From the IMG/VR virus record IMGVR_UViG_3300031555_004037: a DNA stretch of 64,000 nucleotides. One strand, given 5' to 3'. Made by a program: the position numbers and the translations under genes. The notes below the pieces were generated by a model. The model made no database searches. It was not told the DNA's origin and saw only the letters and a program-made list of their open reading frames with translations. The first letter of the stretch is position 1, and each line of letters begins with the position of its first letter. Positions 29,023-39,892 of this stretch are shown in pieces. The stretch comes from a virus. Lineage: Duplodnaviria > Heunggongvirae > Uroviricota > Caudoviricetes.

Positions 29023-30378
29023 ATGACAACAAAATACAACAAAAAGTGGTATAAACCAGAAAAGTTAAGTACCAAAATTTTATTAACTGTATTAATTTTA
29101 TTATTTATCAGAGTATGTTCTAATATTCCTATTCCTTTTATCAATAAGGAATATCTTGAAATTATGTTTGCTGATAATTCAGCATTTTCACTTATTAATA
29201 CATTTTCTGGTGGTTCATTTACTCAAATGTCCTTTATGGCATTAAGTGTAACACCTTATATTACTGCATCTATTGTTTTACAATTATTAACTATTGTATT
29301 TCCTAAATTAGCAGAAATTCCAAAGGGTAGTCCAGAAGATAAAAAGAAATGGGAAATTTGGCAATTTGTTGTTGGTATTATTTTAGGAATTACACAATCT
29401 ATTGGTGTAGCATTAACTTTTGGTAGACAAGGTTTAATTACACCTTATAATTTTGGAACAGTTGCTTTAACCGTATTATTATGGTCATTAGGTGCTATAA
29501 TTACTATTGGAGCAGGTACATATATTACTAAATGTTGTTTTGGAAATGGTATCTCACTTATTTTAACAATGAATATTATTTCTTCATTACCTGGAGATAT
29601 TCTTAATTTCTATAATATGTATATTAAGGGAGAGAATATTGGAAATATTATTATTGCTTGTTTAGTAGGTCTTTTAATTGTTTTAGGACTTATTTCAGCA
29701 ACAGTTATTCTTAATGGGGCACAGAAAGAAATCAATGTAATTTATTCTAAAAATGCTTATAAGAATGGTGGAAATAATAAATCTGTATCAACTATTCCAC
29801 TTAAATTGAATATTGCTGGTGTAATGCCTGTAATTTTTACATCAACATTATTCTCATTACCACTTATGTTTTTAACAAATTCTTCAAATAAAGTAGCACA
29901 AGCAATAGTACATATTTGTTCATCTACTTATTGGTTTGACGGAGAACATTGGTGGAGAACTATTGGATTTTTCTTATATGGTGCGTTAGTTATATTCTTT
30001 GCATATTTTTATACTGCTATTGTATTTAATCCATTTGAAATTGCACAGAATTTAAAGAAATCAGGTGCTTGTATTCCTGGTGTTCGACCTGGACAACCTA
30101 CCATTGAATATTTAACAAAGCAAAGTAAGTATTTAACTTTAATTGGTGCTGTTTATTTATTCTTATTAACTCAAATTCCTATGTTTATTATGCAATTTAC
30201 AGACTTGAGTTATTTATCATTTGGTGGTACTTCAATTATTATTATTGTTGGTGTAGTATTAGAAATTGCTACAACTCTTAAATCTGAAAGATTAAAATTT
30301 GCTTATACAAAAGCAACCTCAAGTAATTCATTTTTAGGTTTAAAAACAAATCAAAATGTAAGAAAGGGAGTATTTTAA
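29023..30378 (+). CDS. secY: SecY protein translocase subunit (mobile-element-encoded copy)
   Basis: FSGGSFTQMSFMALSVTPYITASIVLQLLT ~ FSGGAL...ALGIMPYISASIIIQLLT; GITQSIGVALTF ~ AIFQSIGIATGL; LKKSGACIPGVRPGQPTIEYL ~ [21 protein letters not shown]; 10 TM-like segments; not in spc-operon context. Confidence 0.9.
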   Translation: MTTKYNKKWYKPEKLSTKILLTVLILLFIRVCSNIPIPFINKEYLEIMFADNSAFSLINTFSGGSFTQMSFMALSVTPYITASIVLQLLTIVFPKLAEIPKGSPEDKKKWEIWQFVVGIILGITQSIGVALTFGRQGLITPYNFGTVALTVLLWSLGAIITIGAGTYITKCCFGNGISLILTMNIISSLPGDILNFYNMYIKGENIGNIIIACLVGLLIVLGLISATVILNGAQKEINVIYSKNAYKNGGNNKSVSTIPLKLNIAGVMPVIFTSTLFSLPLMFLTNSSNKVAQAIVHICSSTYWFDGEHWWRTIGFFLYGALVIFFAYFYTAIVFNPFEIAQNLKKSGACIPGVRPGQPTIEYLTKQSKYLTLIGAVYLFLLTQIPMFIMQFTDLSYLSFGGTSIIIIVGVVLEIATTLKSERLKFAYTKATSSNSFLGLKTNQNVRKGVF

Positions 30379-30537
30379 ATGAGAAGATTAAGAAATGAAT
30401 TAAAATCAATTAAATGGTTAAAGAGTGATGATGTAATGAAACAAACATTATTAGTGACAAGTGTGACAGTTTTAAGTGGTGCAATTCTATTAGGACTTGA
30501 CACTCTTGTACAATATATTATTGGAATTATCGTATAA
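30379..30537 (+). CDS. secE: SecE translocase subunit (52 aa; not in ORF track)
   Basis: MRRLRNELKSIKWLKSDDVMKQTLLVTSVTVLSGAILLGLDTLVQYIIGIIV ~ Bacillus SecE (K-x-x-W-P ... single TM ... LLD); RBS AAGGGAG; directly downstream of secY. Confidence 0.7.
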   Translation: MRRLRNELKSIKWLKSDDVMKQTLLVTSVTVLSGAILLGLDTLVQYIIGIIV

Positions 30538-37700: not shown

Positions 37701-39892
37701 TATCTAATTATAAAGAAAATGTATTTGATATTTCTGGAGCAGAAGAAATAGTTATTACATTTAATGTTCAAACTGATAGAAATATTAGTAATATTGATAT
37801 GGGTCCGTATTGTGAAATTCCTGCTAATTGGATAGTAGACGAATCAGAGGCATTATCTTTAGAACATTTAACTTCAACTAAAAATTTAACCTTATTAGAA
37901 AAAGGTAATGTTGTAGATATGGGTAGTAAAGTAGTACAGACTATTGTATATTCAATAGATGATATTTCTCAAATGGCTGAATTAGAATTTTTATCATCTG
38001 AATATGTATATGATGTTACAAGTACAACACAAACTGTAAATACTATTACAGGCAAAACACAATTATTAGTTAATATAATAGTAGTTAAAGATAATGCAAC
38101 TATACCTTATGATACAGATATATATGCTTATAGATATACTAAAAATAATTGGACTATACCTGGATATAATCATATAGACGAAATTAGTGATTATTCAGAA
38201 ACATCTCCAATGACATTTGTTGATAGTTGTATTGAAAAGAGAAATACTAATGTAGGTAAGATATATCCATTAGATGAAATTATTACTCTTGACGGTACTG
38301 TAAAATCTCCAATTCAATTAAAAGGTACTATATGGGAAAAATTTGAAACATCTGTTATTGGTAATAGACGAGATAATAAAGAAATCGAGTTAGATAATTA
38401 TGTTCATAATTATGATAATGCTGATTTAACTTTAGGGGATAGAGAAGTATTACTCACATATAATTGTCCTGTATCATTAACTAATGGTACACCTACTGAT
38501 ACCGTAGAAATTGAAATCAGAGATGAACGTAAAGTTACAATTAAAGGAACTTTAACAACTGATAATGCAGAACCTATTGCTAATAGAGTTATTAAATTAA
38601 CTAAAGAAAATCCTACAACAGTATTATATACATTAAGAACTTTAGCAACAACTAATAATTTACCAACTACAGAATATATGGCTGTAACAGATGAAAAAGG
38701 TAATTATGAATTTAATCAAATAGAAGTTGGTCAATATTCACTTAAATTATATAATACAGATGATATAAATAATATATCTAATGATAATTTATTAGCAGAA
38801 GCAAGTGTATATGTGAATGAAGTATTTACATCTGATAATTCTACTGATAATGTAGATATTACATCTGAAAATGAAAATGTTACTACTGATGTAAATATTA
38901 CTGGAGATACATTTAAAATTGATGCTAATTTAAATATTCCAAAATATACTATTACCTATGATTATAAAACTAATGGTGGTAGTTCTGCAACAAAGGAAAC
39001 AGATATATTAGAAAATGGGGCATTAGTTGATTTAACACCTACTGCATCTAAAGATGGTTATAATTTTATTGGTTGGAATACCGATAAAGACGCAACTACT
39101 TCATTAACATCATTAACAGTAAATAATGCTGATATAACATTATATGCTATCTTTGCTAAAGAAATTCATTTAGTTGAATCTATTGATGTTATACCAGAAA
39201 AGGCTACAATTTATGTAAATAGTAATGTTCAATTATCTGTTAAAGTATTACCAGAAAATGCTGATAATAAAGTAGTTAAATGGCACTCTGAAAATCCAGA
39301 AATTGCTGATGTAGACCAAAATGGTTTAGTTACAAGTAAGAAAACTGGAACAGTAAAAATCTATGCTACTACAACAGATGGTTCTAATTTATCAGATTAT
39401 TCTACTGTTACTGTTATAGAAAAACCAACAGTTCCAGAAAATAATAGAACAATTAAAATCAATGGTAATATTAAAGATAGCAATAATAAAGTAATTAGTA
39501 ATCGTATAGTATATTTAGAAACAAATACAGGCACATCAGTAGTAAGAACAGATATAAAAACTGATATAAATGGTAATTATGTATTTGATAATGTTTCAAA
39601 GGGAACTTATAAATTAACTATTTTAGATATAGATAATAAAACAATTTTATCTCAATGCGAAATTGTTGTGGGAACTGATAAAAATAGTGATTTAATAAAG
39701 GTTATTTCTAAATCTGAAACAATTACATTAAATACTAATATTGATAGTGATGTATTTACTGTTAATGCAATAATTAAAGTAGAAAAACCTACAAGTCCAG
39801 AAACAGGAGATAATTCAAATCCATTTATGTATTTAGGACTAATGTTATTTGCTATTGCAACTTTATTTGTATTAAAAAAATATAAGAAATAA
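34709..39892 (+). CDS. giant (1727 aa) secreted, cell-wall-sorted surface protein: signal peptide, acidic (TTEEV)n region, BspA-type LRR, Big_2, Cna-B-like domains, C-terminal SPETG sortase signal
   Basis: Signal MKSKRLKTRILALFLTMLLVTNSPLVAMA; about 11 x 15-nt TTEEV-type repeats; LRR_5-like IxxxAFxxCxxLTSIxIP units; Big_2 VKWHSENPEIADVDQNGLVTSKKTGTVKIYATTTDGS; tail SPETGDNSNPFMYLGLMLFAIATLFVLKKYKK. Confidence 0.8.
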   Translation: MKSKRLKTRILALFLTMLLVTNSPLVAMAENNPSFVEDEIVTTEETTTEEVTTEEVTTEEIITEEVTTEEITTEEITTEEVVTEEITTEETTTEDVIEEIPITFNLNRNTLVEYCVPSEVITKIESTTFTHQTTEYNKYELITDNAVDNNNNVWYVYSVKSVLDDEVITLGNVIFPKSVKIEDTLIIPASVTDSETYSVYGVGNSSFKDANIINTLEIESGIRTIEDSAFENCGVSNITLSDTIISFGSSVFANNDNLTSFTFPTNPAFVETGYKVLYDCNNLTSITLGENIKVISAESFYQCNKLTNVVIPDGLQAILYRAFAKTAITEINLKNITGLGAQSFEHCYNLETIDWGACLWGGKIDYRTFYMCNSLKEINIPDNVEVVGTDAFNGCTSVTSIDLNNVIQIEYCGFANTGITELTIPESVKSMGAFSFGNTTNLETVTFKNDIRIYISDDSAPSKQLFIVFGKLTYNEPSDTWNNDGGAWKNDVIKKIIIDNENITDCTFVPNGMFQYMGIEEVILSDNISTLNYQAFFDCKNLKTIKANKLNAIQDSVFQNCTSLEEINPTDDVKINFPDTLYWIGTNAFFKCSSLGDVTLDKNIFHIGNSAFYNSGITNLVIGNNVTEIGSSAFKELVNCESIYIDVEPSLVEYREYGTMFWGCTSLDTLTIGKNVTTLEPNCLQNMVTKHLIFEEGSTITEIPNHCVYGNANLESVVLPENLITISEEAFQACYSLKSIELPNTITTIKRNGFFGCHSLETITGLENVEYIGNHAFFNNINLKEVYIGENVNYLGAASFFNTYSLEKVTIDNKYMIDETTGETICKTSETQTEPQVQNYLTRVFGRDDRNFDHNGLASHLNFNKENCTPQHSYFELIITDKVAQLQDYECEGMYVSKVTIQDNGKLTEIPYMCFSNCEYLETVNLGTINKIDKYAFTCCTSLTEIELPMSVTNVGEYAFSGCDSLEEIYLWNPDVKIENYEGSELKHATEIVNGGSISNYKENVFDISGAEEIVITFNVQTDRNISNIDMGPYCEIPANWIVDESEALSLEHLTSTKNLTLLEKGNVVDMGSKVVQTIVYSIDDISQMAELEFLSSEYVYDVTSTTQTVNTITGKTQLLVNIIVVKDNATIPYDTDIYAYRYTKNNWTIPGYNHIDEISDYSETSPMTFVDSCIEKRNTNVGKIYPLDEIITLDGTVKSPIQLKGTIWEKFETSVIGNRRDNKEIELDNYVHNYDNADLTLGDREVLLTYNCPVSLTNGTPTDTVEIEIRDERKVTIKGTLTTDNAEPIANRVIKLTKENPTTVLYTLRTLATTNNLPTTEYMAVTDEKGNYEFNQIEVGQYSLKLYNTDDINNISNDNLLAEASVYVNEVFTSDNSTDNVDITSENENVTTDVNITGDTFKIDANLNIPKYTITYDYKTNGGSSATKETDILENGALVDLTPTASKDGYNFIGWNTDKDATTSLTSLTVNNADITLYAIFAKEIHLVESIDVIPEKATIYVNSNVQLSVKVLPENADNKVVKWHSENPEIADVDQNGLVTSKKTGTVKIYATTTDGSNLSDYSTVTVIEKPTVPENNRTIKINGNIKDSNNKVISNRIVYLETNTGTSVVRTDIKTDINGNYVFDNVSKGTYKLTILDIDNKTILSQCEIVVGTDKNSDLIKVISKSETITLNTNIDSDVFTVNAIIKVEKPTSPETGDNSNPFMYLGLMLFAIATLFVLKKYKK

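Follow-up and report, generated by a model that had tools for sequence, protein, structure and literature searches.

SecY, SecE, flotillin and FtsH genes on a huge phage-like element: a putative auxiliary membrane-biogenesis gene set beside a giant surface-protein gene

SecY is usually regarded as a strictly cellular, single-copy housekeeping marker, and the only mobile carriers reported so far are the Hodor conjugative megaplasmids of the human gut (Yuan et al., bioRxiv 2026, doi 10.64898/2026.02.21.707213). What, then, would a complete SecY–SecE pair do on a phage-like element, and which proteins would it serve? The question is raised by a stretch of 64,000 nucleotides from the IMG/VR virus record IMGVR_UViG_3300031555_004037 (hereafter the window, meaning the whole stretch that was analysed), where genes for SecY, SecE, a very acidic protein, a flotillin, the protease FtsH and a giant surface protein follow one another. 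The original prediction, made from the sequence alone, saw in these genes an accessory-Sec-like device for the export of the giant adhesin. Our answer, in which we place middling confidence, is that they may constitute an auxiliary membrane-biogenesis and quality-control gene set on a huge phage-like element, and that the channel would be a general auxiliary translocon, not one dedicated to the adhesin. All six open reading frames (ORFs) from secY to the giant gene lie on the plus strand, with coordinates that agree with those first proposed:

29023-30378, plus strand: SecY of the canonical type, 451 aa, 10 transmembrane (TM) segments (PF00344, E=9.9e-77, 258.7 bits).
30379-30537, plus strand: SecE, 52 aa, with a single TM segment at residues ~26-52 (PF00584, E=2.3e-9, 37.5 bits against a cut-off of 22.7).
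30547-31227, plus strand: very acidic ORFan protein, 226 aa with 51 D/E residues, beginning 9 nt after secE.
31251-32780, plus strand: FloT-type flotillin with an SPFH domain and an EA-rich coiled coil (Band_7 35.4 bits, Flot 35.6 bits, both over the gathering scores).
32843-34651, plus strand: FtsH, a membrane-anchored AAA+ zinc protease, 602 aa (AAA 8e-44, Peptidase_M41 3e-30, AAA_lid_3, FtsH_ext).
34709-39892, plus strand: predicted sortase-anchored surface protein, 1727 aa (Pfam and sequence motifs).

Based on the profile searches, the SecY of the window is of the canonical type. It scored 294 bits against the canonical equivalog TIGR00967 (cut-off 253.6), with residues 17–423 placed on model positions 2–409, and failed both SecY2 models (TIGR02920, 124 bits against a cut-off of 249.6; NF009082, 133 against 353). 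The protein aligns over its full length with the solved SecY chains of E. coli, Geobacillus and Thermus, its ten-TM hydropathy pattern is intact, and the plug region FSGG is present. In the alignment to E. coli SecY, all six positions of the pore ring are hydrophobic (V76, I80, I177, L181, I271 and I407), and the C5-loop arginine is found as R355, the equivalent of E. coli R357, in the motif PGVRPG. Fifty-nine alignment columns are invariant over 23 members of the clade of element SecYs described below, including those of I80, I271, I407 and R355-P356-G357.

The C4 loop is where the clade differs. Its basic tip QGR(R/K), equivalent to the ribosome-contacting R255/R256 of E. coli SecY, is replaced by variable non-basic sequence in 12 of the 12 clade members aligned, whereas it is kept in E. 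coli and in all seven Lachnospiraceae SecYs; the C5 motif PGIRPG is kept in the clade. The loss of the C4 tip alongside a kept C5 loop suggests a weaker docking of ribosomes and a bias to SecA-driven post-translational export. Owing to this remodelled ribosome-contacting loop, the divergent natural SecYE pair would be useful for studies of channel-partner specificity. The secE gene starts at the base right after the secY stop codon, and its product is marginally under the cut-off of the TIGR00964 model (26.5 against 27.55 bits).

The acidic protein belongs to no Pfam, NCBIfam or PHROG family, and two homologue clusters were found for it in 5.8 billion proteins. An AlphaFold2 model of it was unusable (pLDDT 35.6). 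As a speculation, it might be a Syd-like protein that binds SecY. Among the relatives, which are cited here by locus handles (L001 and so on), it is recognisable in L034 (37% identity) and weakly in L004, whereas L001 and L033 have an unrelated lipoprotein at this position. The flotillin, assigned with PF01145 (Band_7) and PF15975 (Flot) and compared with the FloT model NF058507, has a hydrophobic N-terminal anchor (residues 5–23) and AEAE repeats (residues 311–385). It is 74% identical to a flotillin of Eubacterium ruminantium and 67–69% identical to proteins of Lachnospiraceae metagenome-assembled genomes (MAGs). Judging by such identities, the flotillin is a recent acquisition from Lachnospiraceae and SecY, at ~42% to the nearest cellular proteins, an old capture. 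In FtsH, all motifs are intact (Walker A at residue 215, the pore loop FVGMG at 248, Walker B at 270, the second region of homology at 318 and HESGH at 436), two TM segments lie near the N-terminus (14–32 and 136–154), and the protein is 61–78% identical among relatives.

The gene identities given in the original prediction were borne out by these results. The complete SecY–SecE pair matched its profiles with no ribosomal-protein genes nearby; the flotillin and FtsH passed theirs (Band_7, Flot, AAA and Peptidase_M41) and carry the expected motifs; and the protein that follows SecE is indeed very acidic. Nor is any of the genes degraded, the motifs and TM topology of SecY and FtsH being present, so that these are intact genes and not pseudogenes. 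The 1727-aa protein likewise has the signal peptide, the acidic Thr-rich repeat and the SPETG-TM-KKYKK end ascribed to it, together with matches to LRR_5 and Big_2.

Spacing and predicted hairpins show how the genes may be grouped. The spacers are 0 nt between secY and secE, 9 nt between secE and the acidic gene and 23 nt between the acidic gene and the flotillin gene. Three strong hairpins were found in other spacers:

28944-28983, plus strand: hairpin in the gyrA–secY spacer, followed by UUUGAAUU (ViennaRNA fold of 28937-29022, -21.9 kcal/mol).
32785-32829, plus strand: hairpin between the flotillin gene and ftsH, followed by a TATAAT-like box (fold of 32781-32842, -19.2 kcal/mol).
39897-39929, plus strand: hairpin after the giant gene, followed by the extended -10-like TGATATAAT (fold of 39893-39985, -20.1 kcal/mol).

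The hairpin in front of secY may be a terminator or a processing site, with a separate secY unit beginning behind it, and the spacer between ftsH and the giant gene contains no hairpin. It should be noted that a consensus scan of promoters and terminators performed no better than on shuffled sequence and did not flag the gyrA–secY hairpin. Given the spacers and the flanking hairpins, secY–secE–acidic gene–flotillin gene is the tightest unit. The acidic and flotillin genes are probably co-transcribed with secYE, and ftsH and the adhesin gene each seem to form a unit of their own.

How widely is this arrangement shared? The element SecYs were monophyletic in 100 of 100 neighbour-joining bootstraps, with identities of 48–98% within the clade. 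Its sister (96/100) is the SecY of another huge element, 464,774 bp long, and next comes the SecY of Lachnospiraceae, which are also the nearest cellular SecYs (~42% identity). Scanning IMG/VR with a single SecY query gave no match, and with the clade alignment just distant SecYs (25–36% identity). SecE adjoins SecY in every SecY-bearing member examined, and FtsH is encoded at most 10 kb from SecY in seven of the seven assessable SecY-bearing relatives. The place of FtsH varies: it may follow the acidic protein, lie upstream of gyrB (L001, L033 and L040) or lie 8.5 kb downstream, as in the 464-kb element. The flotillin gene is near secYE in the window, L034 and L050 and ~270 kb away in the 464-kb element; in L004, L001 and L033, the ±10 kb around SecY yielded no flotillin.

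The giant leucine-rich repeat (LRR) protein is confined to the window lineage and its closest relative, L034 (SecY 75% identical), in which the order SecY–SecE–acidic protein–flotillin–FtsH–giant LRR protein is kept. Four relatives (L004, L050, L001 and L033) keep SecYE without a giant gene beside the module. In L014, a near-identical genome with a 100% identical SecY, an IS200/605 insertion sequence (IS) lies between ftsH and the adhesin gene. The association of SecY, SecE, FtsH and flotillin pointed out in the original prediction thus recurs both in relatives and in the second lineage (~464 kb).

The second lineage (L036/L048; ENA ERZ12302822 NODE_2, 464,774 bp) has adjoining secY and secE genes, a SecY 43% identical and a flotillin 70% identical to those of the window, and also genes for a sigma-70 factor, ClpP, RtcB, phosphoribosyl pyrophosphate (PRPP) synthetase and thioredoxin. 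Around SecYE in the relatives, an Apyc1-type anti-Pycsar phosphodiesterase, PARG, PARP, serpins and GGDEF/EAL proteins make up a counter-defence and signalling cargo (L001, 12909-13844; L033, 12262-13170; L050, 4464-5225 and 11684-12913). In addition, SecY was seen outside a ribosomal context in L024–L032 and L041, which are IMG/VR contigs of 25–222 kb, mostly from the human gut. L041 is a gyrase-syntenic relative of the window family whose SecY, encoded upstream of gyrB, is very divergent (25% identical), and L025 has RecD2, RecG and bactofilin genes upstream of SecY.

What kind of element carries these genes? The window has a guanine-plus-cytosine (GC) content of 27% and nearly all of its genes on the plus strand. 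Two of its gene pairs are:

24947-26860 and 26861-28936, plus strand: gyrB and gyrA, directly upstream of the module (Pfam DNA_gyraseB/Toprim and DNA_topoisoIV).
13097-16547: adjoining, short genes for RNA-polymerase (RNAP) beta-like (740 aa) and beta'-like (416 aa) proteins, which match only jumbo-phage multisubunit RNAP families (PHROGs) and phage records.

The unannotated ORFs at 10438-12270 and 16551-17937, beside the RNAP genes, may be further subunits. According to profile searches, the replication genes of the window include a UvsX-like recombinase, DnaB and a primase. Further genes encode a PD-(D/E)XK nuclease, a T4 gp30.7-like protein, thymidine kinase, a UvrD-like helicase-nuclease, an intein-containing SNF2 helicase, a split NAD-ligase, GIY-YIG endonucleases and a PilT-family ATPase, besides GyrB and GyrA; TnpB and inteins also belong to the context of the element. 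Scans for tRNAs, Rfam scans and profile searches revealed neither tRNA nor rRNA nor ribosomal-protein genes in the window.

A SecY identical to that of the window occurs in goat-type Joint Genome Institute (JGI) metagenomes and in ENA assemblies, including a contig of 317,515 bp (ENA ERZ28436105 NODE_4), and an identical flotillin sits on a contig of 323,839 bp. Relatives with SecYs 48–75% identical are contigs of 275–504 kb from ruminant and pig gut datasets. The gyrB–gyrA pair is a conserved anchor, syntenic in L001, L004, L033–L035 and L050 and in the IMG/VR loci L037–L042, and an alignment of the GyrAs of relatives led to 'viral' contigs in IMG/VR (332, 394 and 467 kb) in which the HD-GyrB-GyrA...SNF2 synteny recurs. 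In the manner of a circular or terminally redundant genome, the 394-kb contig wraps around. A conserved genome terminus, considered when two assemblies seemed to end at one position, was ruled out by this wrapping. Searches of the module DNA against GenBank phages and PLSDB plasmids gave just short conserved-domain or host-contaminant matches. The window clearly belongs, as the original prediction had assumed, to an extrachromosomal phage-like mobile element of at least 317 kb and not to a chromosome; its gene context is phage-like, and its relatives stand as huge contigs in IMG/VR. Judged by the recent capture of a flotillin 74% identical to the Eubacterium ruminantium protein, the probable host is a member of the Lachnospiraceae living in herbivore guts.

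The giant protein is the only protein with a sorting signal in the window. Its N-terminus is MKSKRLKTRILALFLTMLLVTNSPLVAMA, with an ordinary signal peptide predicted at 29 aa. Then follow a Thr/Glu repeat (residues 38–100), seven LRR_5 stretches of the BspA type, a hypervariable patch, Flg_new, Big_2 and CarboxypepD_reg/SdrD_B domains, and at the C-terminus SPETG, 22 mostly hydrophobic residues and KKYKK. The protein has no KxYKxGKxW motif and, with the Thr/Glu repeat instead, no serine-rich repeats; it scores far under the cut-off of the HupY/LrrG adhesin model. Signals of the form (S/P)PXTG are cleaved by SrtB of Clostridioides difficile (PMC4155245), and SPETG fits this clostridial form. 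The sortase signature TLxTC was found in no ORF of the window. The adhesin evolves faster than its neighbours, being 44% identical to its orthologue in L034 against 75–88% for SecY, FtsH and flotillin. Compared with the genome that has a 100% identical SecY and FtsH, it is 93% identical overall and just 75–84% identical in residues 1001–1300. This hypervariable patch (37709-38608 of the window, residues ~1001–1300) is covered by no Pfam domain, and residues 1001–1100 are 20% identical to L034. Two features flank the giant gene:

34650-34689, plus strand: (AAAAT)x8 repeat that abuts the ribosome-binding site of the giant gene; L015 also has eight copies, and the IS200/605 element of L014 lies in this spacer.
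39986-40435, plus strand: tail-anchored-type protein, 149 aa, with one C-terminal TM segment (hydropathy peak 131-149) and a weak Sec20 match under the cut-off.

The repeat is a candidate tract for phase variation by slipped-strand mispairing; it is uncertain whether the tail-anchored-type protein is part of the module.

Proteins of the SecY, SecE, FtsH and SPFH/flotillin families are physical and functional partners in E. coli and B. subtilis. FtsH of E. coli degrades jammed or SecE-free SecY, and in model bacteria SPFH proteins (HflK/C and FloT) form cages or scaffolds for FtsH and occur at the same sites as Sec components. The FtsH–SecY pair reportedly goes back to Kihara, Akiyama and Ito in 1995, and the SPFH–FtsH pair is said to be seen in cryo-EM structures of HflK/C–FtsH from 2022. 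On this background, we suggest the following scheme for the auxiliary gene set, each functional step of which we infer. The SecYE of the element would serve as an additional protein-conducting channel driven by the SecA of the host. Its FtsH would supply quality control, and the flotillin would scaffold FtsH and Sec components. Together they would allow the element to maintain or remodel protein secretion and the turnover of membrane proteins in the cell that it occupies. The clients would be the secreted products of the element itself, namely the adhesin in the window and lipoproteins and serpins in relatives, and the adhesin would be anchored by a host sortase.

Several observations weigh against this scheme. 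The IMG/VR relatives L037–L040 are without SecYE, and L042 has SecE and no SecY; with such a patchy distribution in the wider family, SecYE is dispensable. In L042 (IMGVR_UViG_3300011005_000632, 331,944 bp), positions 12415-13698 hold VanZ, an intact orphan SecE (hmmsearch E=1.4e-17) and a lipoprotein, with SecY precisely absent. Genes for SecG, SecA, YidC and signal peptidase did not turn up in the window. Two of the proteins are below their family cut-offs, the flotillin with 294.6 bits against the equivalog cut-off of 700 of NF058507 and FtsH with 477 bits against 600 of TIGR01241, which makes the latter a divergent member of its family. Unrelated accessory genes and IS elements accumulate in the hot spot behind gyrA, so that clustering alone is weak evidence of joint function. 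Finally, genes for terminase, capsid, portal or tail proteins were found neither in the window nor in its flanks (112 ORFs scanned against PHROGs) nor in 61 kb walked along the 332-kb IMG/VR relative, the sequence read amounting to ~75 kb of the family and about a quarter of the genome. As no virion genes were found in the sequence covered, the element may be a megaplasmid instead of a phage. This caveat matters because the Hodor megaplasmids were at first taken for huge phages (doi 10.64898/2026.02.21.707213). Pointing the other way are a replication and transcription module of phage type, with a jumbo-phage-like split RNAP and a UvsX-like recombinase, and the listing of relatives as viral genomes (UViGs) of 332–467 kb in IMG/VR.

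A match to the PHROG 'terminase large subunit' in L061 (E=1.7e-34) was rejected, since the insert that carries it is an intein: the insert is intein-like, 343 aa long, ends in THN|S and lies inside the Walker A motif of a PilT-like ATPase. In the window, positions 57776-60698 encode a TcpE-like protein (57776-58177), a 434-aa protein (58188-59492) and an ATPase of the PilT/VirB11 family (59496-60698). The PilT-family ATPase is 56–94% identical across 11 IMG/VR contigs of the wider family, with an FtsK/SpoIIIE-like gene nearby in L060. This ATPase, which is relevant to the question of phage or plasmid, could drive secretion, DNA transfer or an unconventional kind of packaging.

How well do other explanations account for the locus? 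That SecYE, flotillin and FtsH act as an accessory-Sec-like exporter dedicated to the giant LRR adhesin, as originally predicted, would agree with the gene order conserved through the giant gene in the window and L034, with the lost C4 tip, which would suit an export-only, post-translational channel, and with the Hodors, which likewise pair SecYGE with giant sorted proteins. The idea is nevertheless improbable and is not supported here, because the type of SecY, its partners and the cargo all fail the tests for accessory Sec, the cargo is absent from most relatives and an IS element separates it from the module in L014. The SecY passes the canonical model and neither of the SecY2 models; no SecA2, Asp, glycosyltransferase or sortase gene accompanies it in the window; the signal peptide is an ordinary one of 29 aa without KxYKxGKxW; four SecYE-bearing relatives do without a giant gene beside the module; and the hairpins and spacing put the giant gene in a unit of its own. 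A more serious competitor, still rather unlikely in our judgement, is a coincidence of independent 'moron' genes at a landing site downstream of gyrA, with no functional module at all. FtsH might then act on lysis/lysogeny regulators or host proteins, and the adhesin might alter adhesion or superinfection. Each lineage indeed has its own gene content between gyrA and the SNF2 helicase gene (genes for VanZ, Apyc1, PARG, PARP, NUDIX, a lipoprotein, an AP endonuclease and a CCA-adding enzyme occur there), with three independent IS200/605 or TnpB insertions (L004, L014 and L035). FtsH lies upstream of gyrB in three relatives, the flotillin of the 464-kb element is far from SecYE, and the flotillin was captured recently (74%) and SecY long ago (42%). 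Chance assembly does not readily explain, however, why all four membrane functions recur in two separate lineages of huge elements, why SecY–SecE adjacency is invariant or why the spacers from secY through the flotillin gene (0–23 nt) are operon-like; moreover, FtsH–SecY and SPFH–FtsH are established bacterial pairs.

A takeover of the host is also conceivable, in which the FtsH of the element removes host SecY or other membrane proteins of the host and the divergent SecYE takes the place of host SecY, redirecting export to the proteins of the element. The low identity of the clade SecYs to the nearest cellular SecY (just ~42%) and their remodelled C4 loop would fit such a role, as would the own RNA polymerase and gyrase, which suggest a broad independence of the host. 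We rate it slightly below the dedicated exporter, as it is purely inferential, with no sign in the sequence of discrimination between host and element SecY, and as FtsH is present in L040, a relative without SecYE. Least probable by far is a fragment of a reduced cellular genome with SecY, SecE and FtsH as housekeeping copies. One relative's SecY is deposited as a protein of 'MAG: Bacilli bacterium', and the window has housekeeping-like genes (GyrAB, RecA-like, DnaB, LigA, FtsH and SecYE). Against this stand the lack of rRNA, tRNA and ribosomal-protein genes in 64 kb, the short, split RNAP genes that match jumbo phages only, the UvsX-like recombinase, and the inteins, homing endonucleases, T5orf172 and Apyc1 anti-defence gene. 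SecE beside SecY is not the cellular arrangement either (compare the bacterial spc and nusG operons), and genome-size contigs of 302–504 kb recur, with relatives in IMG/VR. On balance, an auxiliary gene set with a general translocon remains the reading that we prefer.

If the element is a virus, its SecYE would be the first virus-encoded one, and the 'virocell' idea would extend from metabolism and translation to protein export. A bolder proposal, doubtful as yet, is that these are 300–500-kb viruses of gut Clostridia whose working SecYE, FtsH and flotillin rebuild or partition the membrane biogenesis of the host in long infections and export viral proteins, and which were overlooked through the filters of analysis pipelines. 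Two recent surveys of jumbo phages explicitly exclude any contig with the annotation 'preprotein translocase' or 'DNA gyrase subunit A'. Such filters would systematically hide the window family, and the family, which carries both annotations, was probably overlooked for this reason.

Some other features of the element concern its genome at large. Two separate genes encode the NAD-dependent DNA ligase (54959-57706 of the window), an N-half with adenylation and OB domains and a C-half with Zn-finger, HhH and BRCT domains, which are separated by a gene for a 111-aa protein and a HEPN gene (56060-56849). The same split occurs in IMG/VR relatives (L052, 10019-20529; L053, 10007-19337), with inserts of up to ~8.6 kb. 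Inteins interrupt conserved genes, namely those for the SNF2 helicase (49353-51833 of the window), GyrB (L004, 3267-5837) and the PilT-like ATPase (L061, 8330-10606). A GIY-YIG homing-endonuclease gene (2416-3273 of the window) is also found in L012 and L013 and is absent from the near-identical L011 (11230-11625), which makes it a presence/absence polymorphism. At 23501-24788, three small minus-strand ORFs, none with a family match, interrupt the otherwise all-plus window, and GC skew falls from ~0.2 to 0.03 at 24–26 kb.

The locus can finally be compared with known systems. The accessory Sec system (SecA2–SecY2) of streptococci and staphylococci is similar in having a second SecY close to a very large, repeat-rich, sortase-anchored adhesin. 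It differs in that the SecY of the window is canonical, that the cargo is without serine-rich repeats or the extended KxYKxGKxW signal peptide and that the cargo is absent from most relatives; SecA2, Asp1-5 and glycosyltransferase genes were not found among the ORFs of the window in searches with Pfam, NCBIfam and PHROGs. With regard to membrane proteostasis in bacteria, the partners are of the same families, but here they occur jointly on a mobile element and with a SecY that is devoid of the basic C4 tip. As an analogy only, cyanophage psbA is likewise a viral copy of the gene for a high-turnover host membrane protein, and D1, like SecY, is a substrate of FtsH. The protein and the process are different there, and the viral nature of our element is unproven.

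Full-length FtsH-like AAA+/M41 proteases are encoded by the jumbo phages PA5oct and MIJ3 of Pseudomonas and MaAM05 of Microcystis and were proposed to maintain host viability (PMC6892783). They are ~34% identical to the FtsH of the window, come from phages of Gram-negative or cyanobacterial hosts and are reported with neither SecYE nor flotillin alongside. Full-text literature searches joining SecY or preprotein translocase with jumbo, huge or mega phage returned no description of a phage-borne SecY.

The closest parallel is provided by the Hodors, whose genes include those for SecY–SecG–SecE, sortases, trigger factor and a pair of giant sorted proteins (doi 10.64898/2026.02.21.707213). Both kinds of element exceed 300 kb, belong to gut Bacillota and encode SecY and SecE outside a ribosomal operon as well as giant surface proteins with signal peptides and sorting signals. 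Hodors have a GC content of 45–47%, Rep_3, ParA/B/M, a type IV secretion system (VirD4/VirB4/VirB6), two or three sortases, SecG and trigger factor; no SecG, trigger factor, sortase, Rep, Par or type IV secretion gene was found in the 64-kb window. The giant proteins of Hodors (>7300 aa and >2600 aa) have S-layer/MBG domains, whereas the cargo in the window is a BspA-type LRR protein. Several of the human-gut SecY contigs in IMG/VR, with 45–48% GC and small TM ORFs after SecY, may be Hodor-like. The SecYs of such contigs, which are unconfirmed as Hodors, are 29–31% identical to that of the window and branch elsewhere; for L025, this assignment was not confirmed, with no sortase or trigger factor among 10 neighbouring ORFs. 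The claim that the present combination is highly unusual must accordingly be tempered, as SecYGE with giant sorted proteins in Hodors and FtsH in jumbo phages are already known. In sequence, the element is unrelated to the Hodors. With its 27% GC, its origin in herbivore guts, its replication and transcription module of phage type and the addition of FtsH and flotillin, the element is a second, independent case, after the Hodors, of a giant mobile element with its own Sec translocon, and it points to a selection that has repeatedly favoured very large mobile elements with membrane-biogenesis machinery of their own.

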